Part shown: in pieces, positions 49,778-64,000 of the stretch
Position numbering within the stretch: position 1 is the stretch's first letter
How the letters are laid out: each line of letters starts with the position of its first letter
Assembly: GCF_030157465.1 (NCBI RefSeq)
Contig: NZ_JAOAUU010000036.1
Span: 2,427 to 66,426, forward strand
From: Zoogloea sp.
GTDB taxonomy: Bacteria; Pseudomonadota; Gammaproteobacteria; Burkholderiales; Rhodocyclaceae
DNA: 64,000 bases
Direction: 5' to 3'
Position numbers and translations under genes: made by a program
The notes under the pieces: model-generated
What the model was told of the DNA's origin: nothing
Database searches by the model: none
The model's input: only the letters and a program-made list of their open reading frames with translations

Positions 49778-50455
49778 ATGACTGCCCCCCTCCTGCCTGC
49801 TGTCGAAATCGCTTCCGGCGCCAACCCGACCCATGCCGTCATCTGGATGCACGGCCTCGGGGCCGATGGCCATGATTTCGAGCCCGTCGTCGATGAGCTG
49901 GACCTCGACCGCCTGCCACCGACGCGCTTTGTCTTTCCCCACGCGCCGGAGCGTCCGGTGACGATCAATGGCGGCTATGTGATGCGCGCCTGGTACGACA
50001 TCCTGACGATGGATTTTTCGGGGCGACGGGAGGATGCGGCCGGCGTCATCGAGTCGGCGGCGCAGATCGAGGCGCTGATCGCCCGCGAGAACGCCCGCGG
50101 GATTCCCGACAGCCGCATCGTGCTGGCGGGCTTCTCCCAGGGCGGGGCGATTGCGCTGCACACCGGCCTGCGTCACCGGGCGCGGCTGGCCGGCATCCTG
50201 GCCCTGTCAACCTATCTGCCGCTGGCCGACACGCTGGCTGCGGAGGCCAGCGACGCCAACCGCAGCGTTCCGGTTTTCATGGCCCACGGCGAGGCCGATC
50301 CGGTGATTCCCCATGCTTTCAGCAGGCAGTCGGCCGACTTCCTGCTTGCTGCGGGCTATCCGCTGGCCTGGCGCAGCTACCGGATGGAGCATTCCCTGTG
50401 CATGGAAGAGCTGCGCGACATCGAGCTCTGGCTGGTCGGCGTGCTGACGGATTAA
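49778..50455 (+). CDS. Phospholipase/carboxylesterase (alpha/beta hydrolase)
   Basis: WMHGLGADG, MRAWYDI, GFSQGG, AHGEADPVI, MEHSL. Confidence 0.92.
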   Translation: MTAPLLPAVEIASGANPTHAVIWMHGLGADGHDFEPVVDELDLDRLPPTRFVFPHAPERPVTINGGYVMRAWYDILTMDFSGRREDAAGVIESAAQIEALIARENARGIPDSRIVLAGFSQGGAIALHTGLRHRARLAGILALSTYLPLADTLAAEASDANRSVPVFMAHGEADPVIPHAFSRQSADFLLAAGYPLAWRSYRMEHSLCMEELRDIELWLVGVLTD

Positions 50456-50901
50456 CTGGCGCGGCGCTTGAGCAGGTTGTTGCCGATGAAGCTCAGCACC
50501 GTTTCGCCGCGCTGGTTGACGGCCTTGTAGAGCAGGCGGGCGATGCCCCGGTCGGGCTTGGATGACGAGGGGCGCACTTCGAGCACTTCCACCACGCTGT
50601 GCAGCGTGTCGCCGGGGCGCACCGGGGCGAACCAGCGCAGTTCGTCCAGGCCCGGCGAGCCGATGCTCGACCCGGCGAAAATGCCGCTCTGGATGAACAG
50701 GCGGAAGCACACCGCGATCGACTGGAAGCCGCTGGCGATGAGCCCGCCGTAGGGCGATTCGGCCGCGGCGTTGGCGTCGAGGTGGAAGGGCTGGGGGTCG
50801 TAGCGGAAGGCGAAATCGATGATTTCAGCCTCGGTGAAGGTCAGGCCGCCGCTGGTGAAGCGGTCGCCGGGCGTCAGGTCGTCAAGGTAGCGGGTGTCCA
50901 T
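50452..50901 (-). CDS. MaoC family dehydratase
   Basis: FAFRYDPQPFHLD, GLIASG, VRPGDTL. Confidence 0.9.
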   Translation of the reverse strand: MDTRYLDDLTPGDRFTSGGLTFTEAEIIDFAFRYDPQPFHLDANAAAESPYGGLIASGFQSIAVCFRLFIQSGIFAGSSIGSPGLDELRWFAPVRPGDTLHSVVEVLEVRPSSSKPDRGIARLLYKAVNQRGETVLSFIGNNLLKRRAS

Positions 50902-50974
50902 TTCGGGGCTCCTGTTTTTTGGGGCTGTTGCGGGAAGGTCGCGTCCTGCTCTGTGGCGTTCGGGCGGGCCGATC

Positions 50975-50991
50975 CGTCAGGTTTTTTTACA
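50975..50991. promoter_or_regulatory. Candidate bEBP enhancer site (PrsR/PEP-CTERM-like)
   Basis: CGTCAG-N5-TTTACA, 58 nt upstream of the -24 GG; motif recalled from PEP-CTERM regulon work, unverified. Confidence 0.45.
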
Positions 50992-51041
50992 GTTTGCGTG
51001 GCGTAATTTACTCGAGCTTTGTTTTTAATAACATTTTTTCA

Positions 51042-51058
51042 CAGGTATGGAAGTTGCT
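51042..51058 (+). promoter_or_regulatory. Candidate sigma54 (-24/-12) promoter of the giant gene
   Basis: CAGGTATGGAAGTTGCT: GG at 51044-45, exactly 10 nt, GC at 51056-57 within TTGCT; AT-rich tract upstream. Confidence 0.55.
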
Positions 51059-51122
51059 GAAGCCTCCCTGAATAAGGCTTGCGGGCCGTCGCCTGCGGCC
51101 ACAAAACGGTAAGGGGACAAAA

Positions 51123-54100
51123 ATGGCTGCGGTTTACGGTGAAGAGCGCGTTAATTACTACACGACTGACTACCAGTACAGCCCGCAGGCTGCCGGGCTC
51201 GTCGGAGGTGGTTATGTCCTGACCTGGATCTCCAGAGGACAGGATGGCGCTGTCGACGGAATTTACGCCCAGCGTTACAACGCCTCCGGGAGCGCGGTCG
51301 GTGCCGAGTTCCAGGTCAATACCCAAACCGCCGGAAGCCAGGTCGACCCGGCCATCACCGGTCTTGCCGACGGCGGCTTCGTGATCGCCTGGAGCGACCC
51401 CAATGGCGACGGCAGCGAATCCGGCGTGTATGCCCAGCGCTATGACGCGGCCGGCATCGCCCAGGGCGGGCAGTTCCGCCTCAATACCTACACCGCAAGC
51501 AACCAGGACGTGCCTGATCTGGCCGCCTTTTCGACCGGCGGCTTCATCGCAACCTGGGCTTCCTACGGCCAGGACGGCAGCACCTATGGAATCTATGCCC
51601 AGCGCTACGACGCGGCCGGAACCGCGGTGGGCGCCGAGTTCAAGGTCAACAGCACAACAAGCAACGAGCAGACCGAGCCCCATGTGGCAACTTTCGGCGA
51701 TGGCAGTTTTGTCGTCGTGTGGCGCTCCTACCTCCAGGACGGCGACAGCTACGGCATTTACGCACAGCGCTTCAGTGCCGCAGGCCTCGCGACCGGCAGC
51801 GAGTTCCGGGTCAACACCACAACGGCCAGCGCGCAGTACGAAGAGCAGGTGGCCGCGCTCGAAGGTGGCGGCTTTGTCGTCGTGTGGAGATCCGAAGATC
51901 AGGATGGCTCCAACGCCGGCGTCTATGCCCAGCGTTATCAAGCCGACGGCAGTCCGGCCGGCGGGGAGTTCCGGGTCAACGTTTCGACGCTGGGCGGCCA
52001 GTACCAGCCCGACATCAGCGCGCTGGCCAACGGCGGCTTTGCGGTCACCTGGTACAACGACAACTCCGACGTGAGCGGAACGGGATCCTACGCCGACGTG
52101 TACGTGCGCGAATTCGCTGCCGACGGTACGCCGCTCACCGGCCAGGTCAAGGTGAATACTCCCAATGGCTCGACCAGCCAGTACGAGCCGACGATTGCCC
52201 ACATCGGAAGCGACAACTACGTTATTGCATGGCGCTCGGATGCCCAGGACGGTTCCAATTCGGGCATCTATCAGCAGCTCATGGGCACCGCCACCGAGCT
52301 GGCCCGCTCCGAAGCGCCCACCCTCGGCGATTTTGGCGGCTCCGTCAGCTTTGGCGAGAACCTCGTCAATGCCAGCCCGCAGTTGCTCGACCCGGTCGTC
52401 AGCTTCACCGATCTGGATTCTCCAAGCATGGCGGGTGGCCTCGTCACGGTGTTCTACGTGAGCGGCGCCAGTGCCGGCGACCAGTTGGCGATCAGCTCCG
52501 AAGGCATGGCGGCGGGGCAGATCAGCGTGTCGGGCAGCAGCGTGAGCTTTGGCGGCACGGTGTTCGGCAGCCTGGTCGGCGGCAGCAATGGCAGCAATCT
52601 CAGCGTCAGTCTCAATGCCGCGGCAACGCCCGATGCGGTTGAAGCCTTGATCCAGCGCATCACGTACGGCAGCTCCGACAACAGCCCGGCGCCAACGCGT
52701 CAGATCGGTGTGCGCGTCGAAGATGGCGGCGGCGCATCGGCAATGGGTGGGCTGATGACGATCAACCTCACCAAGGAACTCGACGGCACGCCTGCGGTGC
52801 ACGGTGAAGAACAGGTGAACACCTACACGCCGGGCCAGCAGCAATGGCCGTCGGTGGCCACGCTTGGCGACGGCAGCTACGTGGTGGCGTGGCAATCCGA
52901 CAACCAGGACGGCAGCGGCTGGGGCGTTTACGCGCAGCGCTTTGCCAACAATGGCGAAGCCCTGGGCCCCGAGCAACGGGTCAACACCCTCACCGGCAGC
53001 GACCAGAGCTGGCCGCAGATAGCCGGCCTGTCGAACGGCGGCTACGTCATCGCGTGGCAGGACAACGCCAACGACGGCAGCGGCTGGGGCGTGTTCGGGC
53101 AGCGCTACGACGCCAACAACCTTGCCGAGGGCGATCAGTTCCGGATCAACACCACCACCAGCGGTGACCAGTACAACGACAGCCTGGCGGCCTACACAGA
53201 CGGCTTCGCGGCGGTCTGGTCCACCAGCAACGACATCTACCTGCAGCGCTACAGCAACGCCGGGGTGAAGCAAGGCGCCGAAACCCTGGTCAGCACCGTC
53301 CCCGGCGGCGGCACCGCCCAGAGCGGCGCCCAATACCTGCCCGACGTGGCGGCCTACGCCAACGGCAACCTGGTCATCGTCTGGACCGACGCGGGCGGCA
53401 ACGACGGCGACAGCTACGGCGTCTACGGGCGCACCTACAACGCCGGCACCGGCAGCTTCGGCAGCAGCTTCCTGGTGAACACCACCACCAGCAGCTACCA
53501 GGGCTACTCCAACGACGGCAACTACGCCCCCAACGTAGCCGTGCTGAGCAACGGCGACTTCGTCGTGGTGTGGCCCTCCTACAACCAGGACAGCCCGAGC
53601 ACCTGGGCCGTGACCGGCCAGCGCTTCGACGCCGCCGGCAACAAGCTGGGGGGCGAATTCCAGGTCAACGAAACCCTCGCCGGCAGCCAGTACATTCCCG
53701 ACGTCACCGCCCTGTCCAGCGGCGGCTTCGTCGTCACCTTCTACAACGACAACTACGACATCGACGGCACCGGCTCGACGGGCGACGTCTACCTGCGTGA
53801 ATACGACGCCGGCGGCAACCCGGTCGACGGCCAGCGCAAGGTCAACGCAACCACCGTCAGCACCCAGTGGGAATCCGCCGTGGCCGACCTGGGCAACGGC
53901 AACTACGCCGTGGTGTGGGCGGGCTACAACGCCGAGGCCGGCACGGCCAACACCTACGGCATCTTCCAGCAGCTCTACGGCGACAGCACCGAGCTGGCGC
54001 GCTCGGCGAGCCCGCAACTGGGCGACTTCACCGGCACCGTCACCTTCGCCGAAAACGCGGTCAATGCCGGGCTGCAGGTGATCGACGCCGCAGTGGGGCT

Positions 54101-57100
54101 GTCCGACCCGGACTCGGGCAACTTCAACGGCGGTCGGCTGGACCTGTACTACGTCCAGAACGGCAGCGCCGAAGACCAGCTGGGCGTGGTCAGCCAGGGC
54201 AGCGGGGCCGGTCAGATCGGCGTCTCGGGCAGCACGGTGAGCTACGGCGGCGCGGTGATCGGCACGGTGAGCGGCGGCAGCAACGGCGCCAACCTGCGCA
54301 TCGACTTCACCAGCGACGCGGCCAGCGTGGAGGCCGTCGAGGCGCTGATCCAGCACCTGGGCTACCGCAACGCCGATTCCAGCCCGAACGTCAGCCGCAC
54401 GCTGGGCCTGCGGGTGTCCGACGGCGACGGTGGCAGCAGTGCGCCCAGCATGCTGACCATCGTGGTCACCGGCGACGCGGACGGCACGCCTGCGGTGTAC
54501 GGCGAAGAGCAGGTGAACACCTACACGCCGGGCCAGCAGCAATGGCCGTCGGTGGCCACGCTTGGCGACGGCAGCTACGTGGTGGCGTGGCAATCCGACA
54601 ACCAGGACGGCAGCGGCTGGGGCGTTTACGCGCAGCGCTTTGCCAACAATGGCGAAGCCCTGGGCCCCGAGCAACGGGTCAACACCCTCACCGGCAGCGA
54701 CCAGAGCTGGCCGCAGATAGCCGGCCTGTCGAACGGCGGCTACGTCATCGCGTGGCAGGACAACGCCAACGACGGCAGCGGCTGGGGCGTGTTCGGGCAG
54801 CGCTACGACGCCAACAACCTTGCCGAGGGCGATCAGTTCCGGATCAACACCACCACCAGCGGTGACCAGTACAACGACAGCCTGGCGGCCTACACAGACG
54901 GCTTCGCGGCGGTCTGGTCCACCAGCAACGACATCTACCTGCAGCGCTACAGCAACGCCGGGGTGAAGCAAGGCGCCGAAACCCTGGTCAGCACCGTCCC
55001 CGGCGGCGGCACCGCCCAGAGCGGCGCCCAATACCTGCCCGACGTGGCGGCCTACGCCAACGGCAACCTGGTCATCGTCTGGACCGACGCGGGCGGCAAC
55101 GACGGCGACAGCTACGGCGTCTACGGGCGCACCTACAACGCCGGCACCGGCAGCTTCGGCAGCAGCTTCCTGGTGAACACCACCACCAGCAGCTACCAGG
55201 GCTACTCCAACGACGGCAACTACGCCCCCAACGTAGCCGTGCTGAGCAACGGCGACTTCGTCGTGGTGTGGCCCTCCTACAACCAGGACAGCCCGAGCAC
55301 CTGGGCCGTGACCGGCCAGCGCTTCGACGCCGCCGGCAACAAGCTGGGGGGCGAATTCCAGGTCAACGAAACCCTCGCCGGCAGCCAGTACATTCCCGAC
55401 GTCACCGCCCTGTCCAGCGGCGGCTTCGTCGTCACCTTCTACAACGACAACTACGACATCGACGGCACCGGCTCGACGGGCGACGTCTACCTGCGTGAAT
55501 ACGACGCCGGCGGCAACCCGGTCGACGGCCAGCGCAAGGTCAACGCAACCACCGTCAGCACCCAGTGGGAATCCGCCGTGGCCGACCTGGGCAACGGCAA
55601 CTACGCCGTGGTGTGGGCGGGCTACAACGCCGAGGCCGGCACGGCCAACACCTACGGCATCTTCCAGCAGCTCTACGGCGACAGCACCGAGCTGGCGCGC
55701 TCGGCGAGCCCGCAACTGGGCGACTTCACCGGCACCGTCACCTTCGCCGAAAACGCGGTCAATGCCGGGCTGCAGGTGATCGACGCCGCAGTGGGGCTGT
55801 CCGACCCGGACTCGGGCAACTTCAACGGCGGTCGGCTGGACCTGTACTACGTCCAGAACGGCAGCGCCGAAGACCAGCTGGGCGTGGTCAGCCAGGGCAG
55901 CGGGGCCGGTCAGATCGGCGTCTCGGGCAGCACGGTGAGCTACGGCGGCGCGGTGATCGGCACGGTGAGCGGCGGCAGCAACGGCGCCAACCTGCGCATC
56001 GACTTCACCAGCGACGCGGCCAGCGTGGAGGCCGTCGAGGCGCTGATCCAGCACCTGGGCTACCGCAACGCCGATTCCAGCCCGAACGTCAGCCGCACGC
56101 TGGGCCTGCGGGTGTCCGACGGCGACGGTGGCAGCAGTGCGCCCAGCATGCTGACCATCGTGGTCACCGGCGACGCGGACGGCACGCCTGCGGTGTACGG
56201 CGAAGAGCAGGTGAACACCTACACCTACGATTACCAGTACGCACCCGCGGTGGCCGGGCTTGCCGGCGGTGGTTACGTCACCACCTGGATTTCGCGCAGC
56301 CAGGATGGTGCGGCAGGCGCCGACGGGATCTACGCGCAGCGCTTCCTTGAAAATGGCGAGGCGGTGGGCCCCGAGTTCCGGGTGAACAGCACCACCGCGG
56401 GCAACCAGCGTGACGTGAAAGTCGCCGGTCTGTCCGACGGCAGTTTCGTCCTTGCCTGGACCGACCAGAACGGCAACCCGGACGGCAGCGGCTACGGTGT
56501 TTACGGCCAGCGTTTTGATGCCGCCGGCAATGCGCTGGGCGGGCAGTTCCTGATCAACGCAACGTCGACCAGCAGCAACCAGGAGGCGCCGGCGATTGCC
56601 GCATTCGAGAGCGGTGGTTTCGTCGTTACCTGGGATTCGAGCGCATCGCTGGCCAACGGCGGCGATGGCAGCGGCGACGGCGTGTATGCGCAGCGCTTCA
56701 ACAACGACGGCACGACCAACGGCGGGATGTTCCGCGTCAATACCACCACGGCGAACTCGCAATACGAAAGCGACGTGGCGGCCCACGCCGACGGCAGCTT
56801 CGTTGTGAGCTGGCGCTCCGACGCGCAGGACGGCAGTGGCGCAGGGGTGTACTTCCAGCGCTACGACGCCGCCGGTGTCGCGCTGGGCGCAGAAACCCGG
56901 GCGAACACCATCACGATCAGCAGCCAGTACGAGGCGAAGATCGCCACCCTCGCCGGTGGCGGCTTCGTCATCGTCTGGCGCGACGACGGCGGCCAGGACG
57001 GCTCCGCCAACGCGGTTTTCGGGCAGCGCTTCGATGCCGCCGGCAACCCCCTGGGCGATCAGTTCCGGGTCAACGAGACGACGTCCGGCAGCCAGTACCA

Positions 57101-60100
57101 GCCTGATGTCGTCGGGCTCGACAACGGAGGTTTCGTTGTCACCTTCTACAACGACAACTACGACCTCAGCGGCAGCGGCTCCACCGCCGACGTTTACATC
57201 CGCGAATACGATCTCAACGGCGTCGCCGTCGACGGGCAGCGCAAAGTCAATACCTTTACCGGCAGCAGTCAGCAGGAGCCGGCGATTGCTCATCTGGGCA
57301 GTGACAATTTTGTCGTGACCTGGCGCTCCGAGACGCAGGACGGCAGCAACTCCGGGGTCTATCAGCAGCTGTTCGGAGCAGCGGCCGAACTCCCCCGTGC
57401 GTCAGCCAACCCGGTGCTGGACGACTTCCGCGCGCAGCGCATTCTGGTGAGCGACGCGGCCTCGTCGTTCTACGCCGGCACGCCGCAGCTGATCGACGGC
57501 GACGTGGGCGTGCAGGACGCAGATTCCGCCGACTTCGACGGCGGCAGCTTCACCGTCACCCTGCTCAACGGAGCCACGGCCACCGAAGCCCTGGGCATCC
57601 GAAACCAGGGCACTGGCACCCTCCAGATCGGCGTCGCAGGCAGCGACATCAGCTTCGCCGGCACCGTGATCGGCAGCTTCACCGGAGGCGGCGCCGGCAA
57701 CAGCCTGCTCACCGTCACCCTCAACGCCAACGCCACCCCGCTGGCAATACGCGGCCTGGCCCAGAACATCACCTACCAGAACACCGCGCCCCCCGCCGGC
57801 ACCACCGACCGCTACGTGAGCTTCCGCCTCACCGACGGCGACGGCGGCACCAGCAACGCGGCAAACGTGGAGATCCAGATTCAGCCCACGATCACGCCCA
57901 CCGCGGTGGCCGTGGACGACATCGAAACCAGCGTCACCCTCACCGAAGCCCAGGCCCAAGCCGGCGGCTTCTTGCTCGACAATGCGGCGCAGGTCAATTA
58001 CAACGGCGCCGGCAACTTCAACACCGGCACGCTGACGGTCTCCTACCTCAGCAGCACCAGCCGCGTGGACGACCAGCTCGGCATCCGCAACCAGGGCAGC
58101 GGCGCCAACGAGGTGGGCGTCTCCGGCACCGCGGTGAGCTTCCAGGGCACCCAGATCGGCACCCTCAGCGGCACGCTGAACGGCGTAAACGGCAACAACC
58201 TGCAGATCACCTGGAACGCCAGCGCCACCGACCAGGGCATCGAGCGGGTCATCGAAAACCTCACTTACGGCAACACCTCCGACGGCCCCAACGCCAGCCG
58301 CAGCATCCGCTTTGCGCTGACCGACAGCAGCGGCACCGCGAGCACCGTCCGCGACATGCAGATCAACGTGACGCCTCAGATTGACGGTGCCAGCCCGATC
58401 TTCGGTGAGCAGCAGGTCAACACCTACGAGCCGAACGAGCAGCACGTTCCGGTAACGACCGGCCTGCAGGGCGTCAATGACGGCAGCTACGTGGTGGTGT
58501 GGCGCTCGAACGGGCAGGACGGCAGCAGCTACGGCATTTACGGGCAGCGCTACGACAACCGGGGCGGTGCGGTGGGGGCCGAGTTCCAGGTCAATACCCA
58601 GACGCTGGGCGCGCAATACGAAGCCGAAGTGGCCAGCCTGGCCAACGGTGGTTTCGTGGTGGTGTGGCGTGACGACAGTGGCCGCGATGGCTCCGGAACC
58701 GGCATTTACGCCCAGATCTACGGGGCCGACGGCGCCCGGGTTGGCGGCGAGCGGCTGATCAACACCACCACCACCGGCAGCCAGTACGAGCCGGCGGTGG
58801 TGGGCCTGAGCGACGGCAGCTTCGTCGTCGCCTATCGCAGCGACTACACGGGCGGCGCCTACACCACCGACGTGCTGGCGCGGCGCTTCGATGCCGGCGG
58901 CACCGAACTGACACCGGAATTCACCCTCAACACCACCACCTCGGGCACCCAGTACAACCCGCGTCTGGCGGCGCTCGCCGGCGGGCAGTTCGTGGTGGTG
59001 TATGGCGACGCCAGCGGCAACGACGGCAGCAGCTACGGCGTCTTCAGCAAGGTCTTCAACGCCAACGGCACAGAGGCGGTGGCCGAGCAACTGGCGAACA
59101 CCACGATCAGCGGCCAGCAAAGCGGCCACGACGTGGTGGCGCTCACGGGCGGCGGCTACGTGGCCACCTGGTGGTCGGCCGACAACCACATCTACGGCCA
59201 GCGCTTCGACGCGAGCGGCGCCAAGGTGAATGGCGAGTTCCGCATCAGCACGGTCGACACGCAGCCCAACAACAACTTTGCCCGCGTCACGGCGCTGGAC
59301 AGCGGCGGCTTCGTGGTGGCCTGGGATGCCAACGGCTACGAGGTGTACATCCAGCAGTTCGACGCCAGCGGCAACAAGGTAGACGGCCCGACGCAGGTCA
59401 ACACCACGACAGCCAGCACGCAGTACTACGCGGATGTCGCCGGGCTGTCGGGCAGCAACTTCGTGGTGACCTGGGCGGGCTACAACCAGGAGGCCGGCGG
59501 CCCGAGCACTTACGGCATCTTCAGTCAGATTCTGGGCGCGCCCGGCTCGCTCACCCGCTCGGCGGCGCCGGAGCTGGTGGACGTGGCGACGAGCGTGACG
59601 TTTGCCGAAAACCTGGTCAATGCCACGCCGCAGCTGATCGACAGCGCAGTGCGTCTTTCCGACGCCGACTCCGCCAGCTTCAATGGTGGCCAGCTGGTGG
59701 TGTCCGTCGTTGTCGCCGGCCAGAATCAGGTGGATACCCCCTTCAGCCAGGATCAGCTGGGCATCCGCAACGCAGGCACCGGCACGGGCCAGATCGGCGT
59801 GTCCGGCAGCGATGTCAGCTATCAGGGCACAACGATCGGCACGATTGTCTCTGGCGGGGCCAACGGCAGCACGCTGGCGGTGAACCTCAATGCCAACGCC
59901 ACTGCCGGCGCGGTGGAAGCGCTGATCGAGCACCTCACCTACGCCAATAGCTCCACCAATCCGGCGGCAACCCGCCTGGTGAGCATCCAGGTCAGCGATG
60001 GTCTTGGCGGGGCCAGTGTTCCCCGTACCGTGCAGATCAACGTGACGCCTCAGATTGACGGTGCCAGCCCGATCTTCGGCGAGCAGCAGGTCAACACCTA

Positions 60101-63100
60101 CGAGCCGAACGAGCAGCACGTTCCGGTAACGACCGGCCTGCAGGGCGTCAATGACGGCAGCTACGTGGTGGTGTGGCGCTCGAACGGGCAGGACGGCAGC
60201 AGCTACGGCATTTACGGGCAGCGCTACGACAACCGGGGCGGTGCGGTGGGGGCCGAGTTCCAGGTCAATACCCAGACGCTGGGCGCGCAATACGAAGCCG
60301 AAGTGGCCAGCCTGGCCAACGGTGGTTTCGTGGTGGTGTGGCGTGACGACAGTGGCCGCGATGGCTCCGGAACCGGCATTTACGCCCAGATCTACGGGGC
60401 CGACGGCGCCCGGGTTGGCGGCGAGCGGCTGATCAACACCACCACCACCGGCAGCCAGTACGAGCCGGCGGTGGTGGGCCTGAGCGACGGCAGCTTCGTC
60501 GTCGCCTATCGCAGCGACTACACGGGCGGCGCCTACACCACCGACGTGCTGGCGCGGCGCTTCGATGCCGGCGGCACCGAACTGACACCGGAATTCACCC
60601 TCAACACCACCACCTCGGGCACCCAGTACAACCCGCGTCTGGCGGCGCTCGCCGGCGGGCAGTTCGTGGTGGTGTATGGCGACGCCAGCGGCAACGACGG
60701 CAGCAGCTACGGCGTCTTCAGCAAGGTCTTCAACGCCAACGGCACAGAGGCGGTGGCCGAGCAACTGGCGAACACCACGATCAGCGGCCAGCAAAGCGGC
60801 CACGACGTGGTGGCGCTCACGGGCGGCGGCTACGTGGCCACCTGGTGGTCGGCCGACAACCACATCTACGGCCAGCGCTTCGACGCGAGCGGCGCCAAGG
60901 TGAATGGCGAGTTCCGCATCAGCACGGTCGACACGCAGCCCAACAACAACTTTGCCCGCGTCACGGCGCTGGACAGCGGCGGCTTCGTGGTGGCCTGGGA
61001 TGCCAACGGCTACGAGGTGTACATCCAGCAGTTCGACGCCAGCGGCAACAAGGTAGACGGCCCGACGCAGGTCAACACCACGACAGCCAGCACGCAGTAC
61101 TACGCGGATGTCGCCGGGCTGTCGGGCAGCAACTTCGTGGTGACCTGGGCGGGCTACAACCAGGAGGCCGGCGGCCCGAGCACTTACGGCATCTTCAGTC
61201 AGATTCTGGGCGCGCCCGGCTCGCTCACCCGCTCGGCGGCGCCGGAGCTGGTGGACGTGGCGACGAGCGTGACGTTTGCCGAAAACCTGGTCAATGCCAC
61301 GCCGCAGCTGATCGACAGCGCAGTGCGTCTTTCCGACGCCGACTCCGCCAGCTTCAATGGTGGCCAGCTGGTGGTCAGCGTGATCTCCGGCTACGGCAAC
61401 ATCGAGCAGGCCCAGTTGCCGAACAGCCCGGAGACGCAGGATCAGTTCGGCATCCGCAATCAGGGGAGCGGCGCGGGGCAGGTGGATGTGTCCGGCAGCA
61501 ACGTGCGCTATGGCGGTATCGTCATCGGCACGATCAGCTCCGATGGCCTCAATGGCCATGACTTCGTCGTCACCTTCAACGCCAGCGCCACTGCCGGTGC
61601 GGTGGAGGCGGTGATCGAGAACCTCACCTACCGGAATGTGGTGTCCAATCCGGTTGCCAGCCGGATGGTGAGCATCCAGGTCAGCGACGGCGCCGGCGGT
61701 GCCAGCGCGCCGCAGGTGGTGCAGATCAACATCACGCCCGAATACGACGGCGCCCAGCCGCTGTACCAGGAGGATTCCGTCAACACCTACACGCCGTCGA
61801 ACCAGAGCCAGCCGGCCATGGCCCGACTGGAGGATGGCGGCTACGTCACGGTGTGGACTTCCGAGATCCAGGATGGCTGGGGCTATGGCATTTATGGCCA
61901 GCGCTACGACGCCGCAGGCGTGGCGGTCGGCAACCAGTTCCAGGTCAATGACTACACGCCCTACAACCAGACCGAGCCCGCGATTTCCAGCCTGGCCGGT
62001 GGCGGTTTCGTGGTGGTGTGGCGGGATGACGGCGGGCATGACGGCAGCAGCTACGGCGTATTCGGCCAGCGCTACGATGCCGCTGGCCTGCAGGTGGGCA
62101 ATGCGCTGCTGATCAACTCCCATACGGGCAGCGCCCAGTATCAACCGTCGATCGCCAGCGTCGCCGGTGGTGGCTTCATCGTGGCCTGGTATTCCGATGC
62201 CACCCAGGACGGCCGCCCCTACGACGTTTACTTCCAGCGTTTCGACAACAGCGGCACACCCCTTGGCGCGGAAACCCGGGCCAATGCCAGTGCGGGCTTT
62301 GTGAACAGCGCCCAGTACGAGCCCGCGGTGACGGTGCTCTCCGATGCCAGCTTCGTCGTCACCTGGCGCTCCGAGAGCCAGGATGGCAGCAGCTCCGGCG
62401 TCTATGGCCAGCGCTTCGCCGCCGATGGCACGGCGCTGGGCGGCGAGTTCCGGGTCAACACCTATACCGACAGCAATCAGCTTGATCCCAGCATTGCCGC
62501 GCTGAGCGGTGGCGGCTTCGTCGTCAGCTGGACTTCCTATTACCAGGATGGCGGCGGCACCTACGGGGTGTTTGCCCAGCGCTACGCCAACGATGGCACG
62601 CCGCTGGGTGGCGAGTTCCGCGTCAATACCACCACGGCCAGCAACGAACAGCAGTCGTCGGTGACGGCCCTGGCCAACGGTGGCTTTGCGATCGTCTGGA
62701 GCAACGGCAGCGAAATCTATGCCCAGCAATACAGCGCGGGTGGCGTTGCGGTGGATGGCGAAACCCGCATCGACGTGCTTGACGACAACTATGCGATCGA
62801 GCCTGCCGTGCTGGGCCTCGGCAATGGCAATTTCGTCGTGAGCTGGACGGACAGGGGGGATGGCGGCGGCAACAGCTATGGCATCTACCAGCGCGTGCTG
62901 GGCAACCCTGCCGATTTTTCGCGCCAGGCCAATCCGGTGCTGGTGGATGTGGCACAGAGCGTCACCTTTGGCGAGAACGAACTCAACCTGATGCCGCGCC
63001 TGATCGATCCGGGCGTCGGCCTCTACGACGCCGACTCGGCAAACTTCGCCGGCGGCAGGCTCGAGGTTGATTACATCAGCGGCTACGGTGGCCAGGACCA

Positions 63101-64000
63101 ACTGGGCATGCAGGGCCTGGAGAACCAGGATCAGCTCGGCATCCTCAGCGAAGGCGATGGGCTGGCGCAGGTTCGCGTATCGGGTCTCAACGTGTTCTAC
63201 AGCGGCGTGCAGGTGGGCACCATCACCGCCAACGGCGCCAACCACGGCAAGCTGGTGATCGAATTCAACGCCAGCGCCAACGTCGATGCGGTCGAGTCGG
63301 TCATCGAGAACCTCACCTACCAGAACACCTCCAGCAACCCGTTTGCCAGCCGCACCGTATCGCTGCGCCTGACCGACGGTGACGGTGGCGCGAGCGACGC
63401 AAAGTTCATCACCCTCAACGTGACGTCCGCGGTGGATGGCGCCGTGCCCCTGGGGCTGGAAAAGAGCGTCAACACCACGGTGGCCGGCGACCAGAGCGAG
63501 CCCTCGGTGGCGCATCTGGCGGGTGGCGGCTATGTGGTCGTCTGGACGGACCAGGGCGGCGCCGACGGCAGCAACCATGGCGTCTATGCCCAGCGCTACG
63601 ACGCGGACAACAACCCGGTCGGCGTCGAATTCAGGGTCAATACCACCACGACCAACTACCAGTACGAGCCGCAGGTGGTGGGACTGGCCGATGGCGGCTA
63701 TGTCGTGGTGTGGCGCTCCGACGCCCAGGACGGCAGCAGCACCGGCGTCTTTGCGCAGCGCTACGATAACCTGGGGGCGCCCGCGGGTAGCGAGTTCCGT
63801 GTCAATGAAAGCACTCCGGGCGGGCAATACCAGCCCGACGTGGCAGCACTTGCCAGCGGCGGCTTTGTCGTTACCTGGTTCAACGACAACTACGATGTGG
63901 TTCCGGGCACCGGCAGCTATGCCGACGTGTATGTACGCCACTATGCGGCCGACGGCAGCGCCAGCACCGGCCAGATCAAGGCCAATACGCCAACGGCCAG
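51123..64000 (+). CDS. Giant repetitive surface/secreted protein (>4290 aa, 3'-truncated): 7-repeat beta-propeller-like modules alternating with Ig/cadherin-like domains
   Basis: AAGGGG RBS, ATG at 51123 (MAAVYGEERVNYY); same frame still open at 63963 (STGQIKANTPTA); ~55-aa repeat EFRVNTTT.G.Q..P.VA.L..GGFVVVW.S..QDGS..GVYAQRYDA.G; absent from the ORF track because no stop lies in the window. Confidence 0.9.
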   Translation, partial: MAAVYGEERVNYYTTDYQYSPQAAGLVGGGYVLTWISRGQDGAVDGIYAQRYNASGSAVGAEFQVNTQTAGSQVDPAITGLADGGFVIAWSDPNGDGSESGVYAQRYDAAGIAQGGQFRLNTYTASNQDVPDLAAFSTGGFIATWASYGQDGSTYGIYAQRYDAAGTAVGAEFKVNSTTSNEQTEPHVATFGDGSFVVVWRSYLQDGDSYGIYAQRFSAAGLATGSEFRVNTTTASAQYEEQVAALEGGGFVVVWRSEDQDGSNAGVYAQRYQADGSPAGGEFRVNVSTLGGQYQPDISALANGGFAVTWYNDNSDVSGTGSYADVYVREFAADGTPLTGQVKVNTPNGSTSQYEPTIAHIGSDNYVIAWRSDAQDGSNSGIYQQLMGTATELARSEAPTLGDFGGSVSFGENLVNASPQLLDPVVSFTDLDSPSMAGGLVTVFYVSGASAGDQLAISSEGMAAGQISVSGSSVSFGGTVFGSLVGGSNGSNLSVSLNAAATPDAVEALIQRITYGSSDNSPAPTRQIGVRVEDGGGASAMGGLMTINLTKELDGTPAVHGEEQVNTYTPGQQQWPSVATLGDGSYVVAWQSDNQDGSGWGVYAQRFANNGEALGPEQRVNTLTGSDQSWPQIAGLSNGGYVIAWQDNANDGSGWGVFGQRYDANNLAEGDQFRINTTTSGDQYNDSLAAYTDGFAAVWSTSNDIYLQRYSNAGVKQGAETLVSTVPGGGTAQSGAQYLPDVAAYANGNLVIVWTDAGGNDGDSYGVYGRTYNAGTGSFGSSFLVNTTTSSYQGYSNDGNYAPNVAVLSNGDFVVVWPSYNQDSPSTWAVTGQRFDAAGNKLGGEFQVNETLAGSQYIPDVTALSSGGFVVTFYNDNYDIDGTGSTGDVYLREYDAGGNPVDGQRKVNATTVSTQWESAVADLGNGNYAVVWAGYNAEAGTANTYGIFQQLYGDSTELARSASPQLGDFTGTVTFAENAVNAGLQVIDAAVGLSDPDSGNFNGGRLDLYYVQNGSAEDQLGVVSQGSGAGQIGVSGSTVSYGGAVIGTVSGGSNGANLRIDFTSDAASVEAVEALIQHLGYRNADSSPNVSRTLGLRVSDGDGGSSAPSMLTIVVTGDADGTPAVYGEEQVNTYTPGQQQWPSVATLGDGSYVVAWQSDNQDGSGWGVYAQRFANNGEALGPEQRVNTLTGSDQSWPQIAGLSNGGYVIAWQDNANDGSGWGVFGQRYDANNLAEGDQFRINTTTSGDQYNDSLAAYTDGFAAVWSTSNDIYLQRYSNAGVKQGAETLVSTVPGGGTAQSGAQYLPDVAAYANGNLVIVWTDAGGNDGDSYGVYGRTYNAGTGSFGSSFLVNTTTSSYQGYSNDGNYAPNVAVLSNGDFVVVWPSYNQDSPSTWAVTGQRFDAAGNKLGGEFQVNETLAGSQYIPDVTALSSGGFVVTFYNDNYDIDGTGSTGDVYLREYDAGGNPVDGQRKVNATTVSTQWESAVADLGNGNYAVVWAGYNAEAGTANTYGIFQQLYGDSTELARSASPQLGDFTGTVTFAENAVNAGLQVIDAAVGLSDPDSGNFNGGRLDLYYVQNGSAEDQLGVVSQGSGAGQIGVSGSTVSYGGAVIGTVSGGSNGANLRIDFTSDAASVEAVEALIQHLGYRNADSSPNVSRTLGLRVSDGDGGSSAPSMLTIVVTGDADGTPAVYGEEQVNTYTYDYQYAPAVAGLAGGGYVTTWISRSQDGAAGADGIYAQRFLENGEAVGPEFRVNSTTAGNQRDVKVAGLSDGSFVLAWTDQNGNPDGSGYGVYGQRFDAAGNALGGQFLINATSTSSNQEAPAIAAFESGGFVVTWDSSASLANGGDGSGDGVYAQRFNNDGTTNGGMFRVNTTTANSQYESDVAAHADGSFVVSWRSDAQDGSGAGVYFQRYDAAGVALGAETRANTITISSQYEAKIATLAGGGFVIVWRDDGGQDGSANAVFGQRFDAAGNPLGDQFRVNETTSGSQYQPDVVGLDNGGFVVTFYNDNYDLSGSGSTADVYIREYDLNGVAVDGQRKVNTFTGSSQQEPAIAHLGSDNFVVTWRSETQDGSNSGVYQQLFGAAAELPRASANPVLDDFRAQRILVSDAASSFYAGTPQLIDGDVGVQDADSADFDGGSFTVTLLNGATATEALGIRNQGTGTLQIGVAGSDISFAGTVIGSFTGGGAGNSLLTVTLNANATPLAIRGLAQNITYQNTAPPAGTTDRYVSFRLTDGDGGTSNAANVEIQIQPTITPTAVAVDDIETSVTLTEAQAQAGGFLLDNAAQVNYNGAGNFNTGTLTVSYLSSTSRVDDQLGIRNQGSGANEVGVSGTAVSFQGTQIGTLSGTLNGVNGNNLQITWNASATDQGIERVIENLTYGNTSDGPNASRSIRFALTDSSGTASTVRDMQINVTPQIDGASPIFGEQQVNTYEPNEQHVPVTTGLQGVNDGSYVVVWRSNGQDGSSYGIYGQRYDNRGGAVGAEFQVNTQTLGAQYEAEVASLANGGFVVVWRDDSGRDGSGTGIYAQIYGADGARVGGERLINTTTTGSQYEPAVVGLSDGSFVVAYRSDYTGGAYTTDVLARRFDAGGTELTPEFTLNTTTSGTQYNPRLAALAGGQFVVVYGDASGNDGSSYGVFSKVFNANGTEAVAEQLANTTISGQQSGHDVVALTGGGYVATWWSADNHIYGQRFDASGAKVNGEFRISTVDTQPNNNFARVTALDSGGFVVAWDANGYEVYIQQFDASGNKVDGPTQVNTTTASTQYYADVAGLSGSNFVVTWAGYNQEAGGPSTYGIFSQILGAPGSLTRSAAPELVDVATSVTFAENLVNATPQLIDSAVRLSDADSASFNGGQLVVSVVVAGQNQVDTPFSQDQLGIRNAGTGTGQIGVSGSDVSYQGTTIGTIVSGGANGSTLAVNLNANATAGAVEALIEHLTYANSSTNPAATRLVSIQVSDGLGGASVPRTVQINVTPQIDGASPIFGEQQVNTYEPNEQHVPVTTGLQGVNDGSYVVVWRSNGQDGSSYGIYGQRYDNRGGAVGAEFQVNTQTLGAQYEAEVASLANGGFVVVWRDDSGRDGSGTGIYAQIYGADGARVGGERLINTTTTGSQYEPAVVGLSDGSFVVAYRSDYTGGAYTTDVLARRFDAGGTELTPEFTLNTTTSGTQYNPRLAALAGGQFVVVYGDASGNDGSSYGVFSKVFNANGTEAVAEQLANTTISGQQSGHDVVALTGGGYVATWWSADNHIYGQRFDASGAKVNGEFRISTVDTQPNNNFARVTALDSGGFVVAWDANGYEVYIQQFDASGNKVDGPTQVNTTTASTQYYADVAGLSGSNFVVTWAGYNQEAGGPSTYGIFSQILGAPGSLTRSAAPELVDVATSVTFAENLVNATPQLIDSAVRLSDADSASFNGGQLVVSVISGYGNIEQAQLPNSPETQDQFGIRNQGSGAGQVDVSGSNVRYGGIVIGTISSDGLNGHDFVVTFNASATAGAVEAVIENLTYRNVVSNPVASRMVSIQVSDGAGGASAPQVVQINITPEYDGAQPLYQEDSVNTYTPSNQSQPAMARLEDGGYVTVWTSEIQDGWGYGIYGQRYDAAGVAVGNQFQVNDYTPYNQTEPAISSLAGGGFVVVWRDDGGHDGSSYGVFGQRYDAAGLQVGNALLINSHTGSAQYQPSIASVAGGGFIVAWYSDATQDGRPYDVYFQRFDNSGTPLGAETRANASAGFVNSAQYEPAVTVLSDASFVVTWRSESQDGSSSGVYGQRFAADGTALGGEFRVNTYTDSNQLDPSIAALSGGGFVVSWTSYYQDGGGTYGVFAQRYANDGTPLGGEFRVNTTTASNEQQSSVTALANGGFAIVWSNGSEIYAQQYSAGGVAVDGETRIDVLDDNYAIEPAVLGLGNGNFVVSWTDRGDGGGNSYGIYQRVLGNPADFSRQANPVLVDVAQSVTFGENELNLMPRLIDPGVGLYDADSANFAGGRLEVDYISGYGGQDQLGMQGLENQDQLGILSEGDGLAQVRVSGLNVFYSGVQVGTITANGANHGKLVIEFNASANVDAVESVIENLTYQNTSSNPFASRTVSLRLTDGDGGASDAKFITLNVTSAVDGAVPLGLEKSVNTTVAGDQSEPSVAHLAGGGYVVVWTDQGGADGSNHGVYAQRYDADNNPVGVEFRVNTTTTNYQYEPQVVGLADGGYVVVWRSDAQDGSSTGVFAQRYDNLGAPAGSEFRVNESTPGGQYQPDVAALASGGFVVTWFNDNYDVVPGTGSYADVYVRHYAADGSASTGQIKANTPTA
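52812..56224 (+). repeat. Tandem duplication, 1698-bp period (566 aa), two copies plus 17 nt
   Basis: CAGGTGAACACCTACAC at 52812, 54510 and 56208; the two copies looked identical by eye. Confidence 0.92.
58357..61375 (+). repeat. Direct repeat, 1345 bp at 1674-bp period (58357-59701 and 60031-61375)
   Basis: TGCAGATCAACGTGACGCCTCAG at 58357 and 60031; one synonymous difference seen (GGT/GGC); identity ends inside the Ig-like domain. Confidence 0.9.

Follow-up and report, generated by a model that had tools for sequence, protein, structure and literature searches.

A predicted PrsR/sigma-54 promoter of the PEP-CTERM box type, conserved upstream of a giant repeat-protein gene in Zoogloea

The window, a 64,000-nt stretch of the genome of a Zoogloea sp. 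(174 contigs, 64% G+C), carries a MaoC-like dehydratase gene and, divergent from it, the 5′ part of a giant open reading frame; the features of the intergenic region between them are collected in Table 1, together with two related loci of the same genome. The original prediction had placed a sigma-54 promoter and an upstream enhancer in this region and had tentatively assigned the giant gene to the PEP-CTERM/floc regulon. Both sequence elements were found as it described them. The GG and GC (51056-57) of the promoter are exactly 10 nt apart, the latter within TTGCT (51054-58), and CGTCAG (50975-50980), five nucleotides (GTTTT) and TTTACA (50986-50991) make up a 17-nt box, with 58 nt from the start of TTTACA to the GG. 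The box is of the type yGTCrnnTTTTTTTACA (TGT-N11-ACA), and its centre lies approximately 86 nt 5′ of the predicted transcription start. The -12 half of the sigma-54 element, TTGCT, is the consensus, and the -24 half, AGGTAT, is a weak GGT variant. A 63-nt leader separates this element from the ATG of the giant frame at 51123.

Table 1. Positions of the promoter elements, their neighbouring genes and two related loci (positions without a prefix are those of the window)
Feature	Position	Strand	Description
MaoC-like dehydratase gene	50452..50901	-	Pfam PF01575; divergent neighbour, outside the element
Intergenic region	50902-51122		221 bp, non-coding; between divergent MaoC-like gene and giant ORF
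PEP-CTERM box CGTCAGGTTTTTTTACA	50975..50991	+	Haft 2006 motif 1; predicted PrsR upstream activator site
Spacer	50992..51042	+	51 nt, 69% A+T (genome 64% G+C)
Sigma-54 -24/-12 element AGGTATGGAAGTTGCTG	51043..51059	+	GG 51044-45, TTGC 51054-57
Predicted transcription start	51069	+	Inferred from sigma-54 geometry, 12 nt past C of -12 GC
Shine-Dalgarno-like AGGGG	51112..51116	+	6 nt upstream of ATG
Giant repeat-protein gene, 5′ part	51123..64000	+	Predicted promoter target; no signal peptide; runs off window
Paralogue box TGTCAGATTTTTTTACA	L038:2233-2249 (contig C13)	-	49-nt spacer, sigma-54 element identical to that of the window, 63 nt to ATG
2392-aa protein	L051:5042-12437 (contig C53)	-	14 SdrD B-like repeats, no signal peptide

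Within the spacer, the TTGTTTTT block (51019-51026) is partly conserved, and a T-run adjoins the -24 element. The A+T-rich tract recognized in the original prediction is present and could form an intrinsic bend, but the IHF bend suggested for it was not borne out: the IHF consensus WATCAANNNNTTR, with up to 2 mismatches allowed, was not found in the spacer of the window and was not found at a conserved position in the orthologues. One strong box only precedes the giant gene, compared with two at several PEP-CTERM genes. Weak T-rich matches of 7-13 bits at -96 to -112, abutting the -24 half, were considered as a second activator site and set aside as probably compositional. A terminator-like hairpin over the box (50963-50978 plus the T-run) was also rejected, as one such structure was found against 0.6 expected and no plus-strand gene end lies nearby. 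A search for sigma-70-type promoters in the intergenic region 50902-51122 found none. At the place of the Shine-Dalgarno-like sequence, the orthologues carry a purine-rich block (AGGGG, AGGAA, GGGGA or AGAGG).

A 17-nt motif 1 ending with TTTACA and followed by a sigma-54 motif 2 was described by Haft, Paulsen, Ward and Selengut in 2006 (PMC1569441), which confirms the TTTACA enhancer motif named in the original prediction. In their set, the two motifs are separated by 62.8 ± 10.6 nt (range 32-92), motif 2 lies 71 ± 38.5 nt (range 23-221) from the start codon, and a few extra sites stand before genes for proteins without PEP-CTERM; the assignment of PrsR as the binder of motif 1 is a prediction by phylogenetic profile. 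The region in the window resembles theirs in that a 17-mer ending with TTTACA, a spacer of 51 nt, GG-N10-GC and a distance of 63 nt to the start are found in non-coding DNA, and in that the host genome encodes PrsK, PrsR, PrsT and an exosortase along with many PEP-CTERM genes. It differs in the A at position 5 of the box and in the GGT of the -24 half. It also differs in the downstream gene, whose product is not a PEP-CTERM protein (typical but not obligatory according to Haft et al.) but a predicted type I-secreted repeat protein of ~6000 aa, without a signal peptide or a PEP-CTERM tail.

The original prediction hinged on the presence of prsK/prsR and PEP-CTERM genes in the genome, and both are there. 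The genes for PrsK (811.2 bits), PrsR (752.6 bits) and PrsT (856 bits), all above curated cut-offs, are adjacent on contig C111; rpoN (TIGR02395, 475.5 bits, above cut-off) and an exosortase gene (above its curated cut-off) are also encoded, and the genome contains 22 PEP-CTERM matches. Nine PEP-CTERM genes are preceded by yGTCGrnnTTTTTTTACA, with GG-N10-GC 51-95 nt later and the start codon another 35-70 nt on. For at least 13 PEP-CTERM genes, GG-N10-GC follows the same motif 30-107 nt on and the start codon lies 12-107 nt beyond, and the geometry of the window (spacer 51 nt, 63 nt to ATG) falls within the range of these genes and within the ranges of Haft et al. Genome-wide, 20 composite sites (a box of at least 19.7 bits plus GG-N10-GC) were found, the majority of them before PEP-CTERM or PEP-CTERM-like genes.

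The boxes of the nine PEP-CTERM genes were used to build a weight matrix, the comparison that had been proposed with the original prediction, and both strands of the genome (9.39 million positions) were scored with it. The box in the window scored 19.9 bits and ranked 26 of the 9.39 million positions, which places it within the top 26 genome-wide. Order-3 Markov genomes of equal size gave 3, 6 and 8 matches at or above this score versus the 26 observed, and about 3e-4 matches are expected within the 221-bp intergenic region from its own composition. The sigma-54 element, when judged by consensus alone, was not significant, and this way of judging it was given up: GG-N10-GC alone occurs at 1127 sites in the window, fewer than the shuffle mean of 1217, and TGGCAC-N5-TTGCW within 3 mismatches occurs at 243 sites, where shuffled sequences average 311. 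A sigma-54 score as good as this one would arise by chance somewhere in the allowed spacer range with a probability of ~0.06-0.13.

Conservation was investigated with the first 202 residues of the giant protein as the query against 24 other genomes of the genus, eight of which contained N-terminal orthologues. Among named records, Zoogloea MAGs come closest, with 93% identity over these 202 residues. Including paralogues, 13 upstream regions from nine Zoogloea genomes were aligned, and all 13 carry the box at about -150 and GG-N10-GC at about -82. Invariant columns are concentrated in the two elements, 11 of 17 in the box and 8 of 17 in the sigma-54 element (the GG and GC are invariant in 13/13), versus 0 of 64 upstream of the box, 5 of 51 in the spacer and 2 of 63 in the 5′ UTR/leader. 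The A+T content of the spacer ranges from 35% to 88% among the orthologues. A maoC neighbour is present at eight Zoogloea loci and absent from C13-type loci and from Thauera, so the giant gene keeps its box and promoter with or without maoC upstream.

The composite is also found before orthologues in Thauera terpenica 58Eu, Thauera sp. 2A1, a Thauera MAG and a betaproteobacterial MAG. In these four Thauera-type regions, a box of the TGTCGG or TGTCGA type is separated by 50-70 nt from a sigma-54 site with AGGCAT or TGGCAT, the ATG lies 54-58 nt beyond, and PrsR is encoded in all four genomes. Over Zoogloea and beyond, the composite is kept in position in 17 of the 18 orthologous upstream regions. 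This figure bears on the possibility that the two elements co-occur by chance in A+T-rich intergenic DNA, or that they serve the divergent maoC-like gene. Scores from the T-rich matrix are inflated by T-rich DNA, so that 9-80 genome-wide matches are expected under uniform or T-rich backgrounds, and the terminator-like hairpin overlapping the box is itself at chance level; however, both position and sequence are kept in 17/18 regions, in two genera and in several contexts including loci without maoC, and no sigma-54 site faces maoC. Chance is contradicted by this conservation across the aligned sequences, and we regard it, like service to maoC, as very improbable. The orthologue in Ca. Accumulibacter proximus (L063:3680-4003; 54% N-terminal identity) has neither a box nor a GG-N10-GC composite upstream, although this genome also encodes PrsR. 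The link between box and giant gene therefore seems to be confined to Zoogloea and Thauera-type genomes among those sampled, and the alignments suggest that it is lineage-specific.

The sigma-54 element of the window has 3 mismatches to TGGCAC-N5-TTGCW, all in the -24 half, with A at -26 and T after GG. It scored 7.2 bits against 7.7-16 for the leave-one-out training sites and 10.7-19.8 for the orthologues, and is the weakest among the boxed promoters of the genome. Other Zoogloea species have better -24 halves at the same position (AGGCAC, AGGCAT, TGGCAT, CGGCAC), and the GGT of the window is therefore taken as a derived variant. These observations raise the possibility that the promoter has decayed or become very weak in this genome, the C-to-T change beside the -24 GG having mostly silenced it, and that the giant gene is poorly expressed or uses another promoter. 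The score lies under every training site, and the GGT form is limited to the window, its paralogue on contig C13 and the nearest Zoogloea MAG, which share the whole sigma-54 element unchanged; the other seven Zoogloea genomes have GGC. Nevertheless, GGT is retained in a second genome and in both paralogues, which share no more than 73% identity over their first 202 residues; GGTA -24 halves occur at other boxed promoters of the genome (TGGTATGAATTTTGCTT on contig C20 and TGGTACATTAATTGCAT on contig C55); and the reading frames continue unbroken for over 5000 codons, with no alternative sigma-70 promoter found. The nifH promoter of Klebsiella, with a TGGTAT -24 half, is active. Decay of the promoter thus appears unlikely. 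The paralogous giant gene on contig C13 encodes more than 4630 aa and runs off its contig. By eye, the window and the C13 copy are about nine-tenths identical from the -24 element to the first ~200 nt of coding sequence, and this promoter-proximal likeness looks like the result of gene conversion or strong constraint.

The box in the window fits the consensus of the PEP-CTERM genes at 16 of 17 positions, the sole deviation being the A at position 5 (50979). Of the 13 Zoogloea giant-gene boxes, 11 have A at position 5 and two read TGTCGT, whereas all nine training boxes and the Thauera orthologues have G there. The deviation, kept within the lineage, might tune affinity. It might alternatively mark a different specificity, the promoter being a real sigma-54 promoter whose activator is another enhancer-binding protein and not PrsR. 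The genome encodes about 14 proteins that contain a sigma-54 activation domain, among them a second PrsR-like regulator (350.9 bits, C111:14401-15726), which lies next to a kinase gene and on the contig that also carries PrsR; the Zoogloea giant-gene boxes differ consistently from the PEP-CTERM gene boxes at this position; and the box was assigned to PrsR by phylogenetic profiling only. Against this, the other 16 positions agree with the consensus of the PEP-CTERM gene boxes, the canonical TGTCGG/TGTCGA form is found in the Thauera orthologues, the next gene in Thauera and on contig C27 (see below) is a PEP-CTERM gene with a canonical box, and no second motif class was seen. Control by an activator other than PrsR is accordingly rated as quite unlikely, and both this alternative and promoter decay stay at low probability on the sequence comparisons made here.

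The giant open reading frame encodes no signal peptide and is intact up to the end of contig C32, which it runs off after 5131 codons. A Pfam-A search with 4292 residues (51123-63998) at E ≤ 0.01 generated no match. Repeats of ~48 residues (GIYAQRY...EFxVN...GGFVVxW) were recognized in the protein, with PKD-like DWGDG units further on. All Zoogloea copies of the giant gene run off contig ends, and the complete locus of the Thauera MAG was used as a stand-in for the full-length gene; a 4251-aa protein of genome G022, considered as a complete Zoogloea giant gene, was rejected as an unrelated cadherin-type adhesin. The Thauera orthologue has 6433 aa and ends without a PEP-CTERM tail. Five nucleotides past its stop codon lies a second box, TGTCGGCGGTTTTTACA (L132:19739-19755, minus strand), with its own sigma-54 site, in front of a gene for a 219-aa PEP-CTERM protein (PF07589), and this is followed by genes for an ABC transporter (PF00664 + PF00005) and an HlyD-family protein, which correspond to a type I secretion pump. 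Type I secretion would account for the missing signal peptide of the giant protein.

In the Zoogloea genome, contig C27 starts with a C-terminal fragment of a giant protein that is 51% identical to the Thauera C-terminus and has no PEP-CTERM tail, and this fragment is, from its sequence, probably the 3′ end of the giant gene of the window. A GC-rich hairpin comes next, then a canonical box (C27:3642-3658, 53 nt past the end of the open reading frame) and a sigma-54 site in front of a PEP-CTERM gene. Tandem boxed promoters, one for the giant gene and one for a small downstream PEP-CTERM gene, were thus seen at the giant locus in both genera. An orthologue of the ABC transporter (77% identity) is located at the very end of contig C75.

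Since the site matches the two-part switch and is conserved before the same gene in Zoogloea and Thauera, the giant protein was placed in the predicted gene set of the switch. The 85-bp stretch from the box to the -12 half is interpreted as an enhancer-dependent PEP-CTERM box promoter at which PrsR and sigma-54 would drive expression of a giant type I-secreted protein, a reading to which we assign a probability of roughly 0.78. The proposal that the giant gene belongs to the PEP-CTERM/floc regulon is supported, on computational grounds, by the matrix from its own genome, by the conservation in Zoogloea and Thauera and by the trans-acting genes, and the same computations support membership of the giant type I-secreted protein in the predicted PrsR/sigma-54 gene set. 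PrsR binding to the box, the start site and the dependence of the giant gene on RpoN and PrsR are what we infer from how NtrC-family activators are known to act and from the phylogenetic profile by which Haft et al. linked the box to PrsR. In the proposed mechanism, sigma-54 RNA polymerase would wait on AGGTAT-N5-TTGCT (51043-51059) as a closed complex, while PrsR, an NtrC-type response regulator, would be phosphorylated by the membrane kinase PrsK and bind the 50975-50991 box as a dimer or oligomer. From its site centred near -86, PrsR would then loop across the A+T-rich spacer and use ATP to open the promoter, so that the transcript of the giant signal-peptide-less repeat protein would begin near 51069. 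The product would be exported by the type I secretion pump and not via the exosortase, and would share its on/off regulon with the PEP-CTERM proteins to which Zoogloea flocs owe their cohesion.

NtrC-family promoters such as glnAp2 and nifH have a -24/-12 element, a dyad activator site approximately 80-150 bp upstream and A+T-rich DNA between them. The promoter in the window shares the -24/-12 element, the upstream dyad site and the A+T-rich intervening region, and differs in having a single 17-bp site, where those have strong sites in tandem, and in lacking a recognisable IHF site. LapA of Pseudomonas is a giant type I-secreted biofilm adhesin under FleQ, which also controls matrix polysaccharide genes and which acts at lapA with c-di-GMP and is not known to do so via a sigma-54 -24/-12 promoter. 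The likeness to the present case would be that of a giant type I-secreted protein under a regulator of the AAA+ enhancer-binding type, and there is no sequence relation between the sites. To our knowledge, the members of the PrsK/PrsR regulon studied so far are small PEP-CTERM proteins only.

For the genus itself, genetic proof that PrsK/PrsR and RpoN control PEP-CTERM genes and floc formation is given in the account of PMC9012009, which, in summarising Gao et al. 2018, states for Z. resiniphila that transcription of a PEP-CTERM gene is regulated by RpoN and PrsK-PrsR. The same account reports that overexpression of PepA alone bypasses prsK/prsR and restores flocs in the Z. resiniphila mutants, which implies that a PrsR-dependent giant protein would not be essential for flocculation in that assay. 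Aquincola pepA is RpoN1-dependent, with a start site behind a TGGCAC/CTGCTT promoter and a predicted enhancer upstream (PMC9850573). The promoter in the window is like the pepA promoters of Z. resiniphila MMB and Aquincola tertiaricarbonis RN12 in genus or lifestyle, in the architecture of a predicted enhancer plus a sigma-54 element, and in the regulators. The pepA promoters have the support of mutants and, in Aquincola, of 5′ end mapping, whereas the evidence for that in the window comes from sequence and conservation; they drive small Sec/exosortase substrates, unlike the type I secretion substrate predicted here. In the literature searched, no report was found that connects a giant type I-secreted protein with PrsR, RpoN or the PEP-CTERM box. 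The class of cis-element is already known, and what the comparison appears to add is a widening of the predicted PrsR regulon that is conserved in Zoogloea and Thauera, with no new mechanism.

Other genes without a PEP-CTERM tail are also boxed. The second-best box of the genome, TGTCGGTTTTTTTTACA (29.1 bits), stands with TGGCCCGCAAATTGCTG before the gene for the 2392-aa protein, which by its sequence is a second large adhesin-like member of the predicted regulon outside the PEP-CTERM class. On contig C20 (C20:276-2172), a box of 25.2 bits with TGGTATGAATTTTGCTT is located ~300 nt upstream of the gene for a 501-aa polytopic membrane protein; this could be the product of an exopolysaccharide gene and would then extend the regulon past secreted proteins. 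More boxed sites precede the genes for a 178-aa protein (contig C57) and for a contig-truncated protein with a signal peptide (contig C71). The boxed genes without a PEP-CTERM tail indicate a predicted regulon wider than the PEP-CTERM genes, and the boxes before the ~6000-residue protein, its paralogue and the SdrD-repeat adhesin suggest that the reach of PrsK/PrsR exceeds what the name of the regulon implies.

The settling of activated sludge depends on floc formation by Zoogloea, and the boxed giant genes point to specific candidates for matrix components. Only tentatively, and with more doubt than confidence, we suggest that PrsK/PrsR in Zoogloea and Thauera co-ordinates two export routes for one structure, the exosortase-sorted PEP-CTERM proteins and the giant type I-secreted proteins (the propeller-repeat protein of the window, its paralogue and the 2392-aa SdrD-repeat protein). 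The giant protein would then be a scaffold of the floc matrix that works with its boxed PEP-CTERM neighbour, and the A at position 5 together with the weak -24 half would raise the activation threshold, giving expression later or only at high levels of phosphorylated PrsR. The box and -24 variants form a natural series in which the graded response of different targets to a single enhancer-binding protein could be studied. With respect to the boxed PEP-CTERM genes of the genome, the end of contig C23 (box, sigma-54 site, ...PIPDELPG) was seen to overlap the start of contig C93 (…PGPIPDELPGYFHDF…), indicating that the two contigs join and that the box on C23 serves the PEP-CTERM gene on C93.
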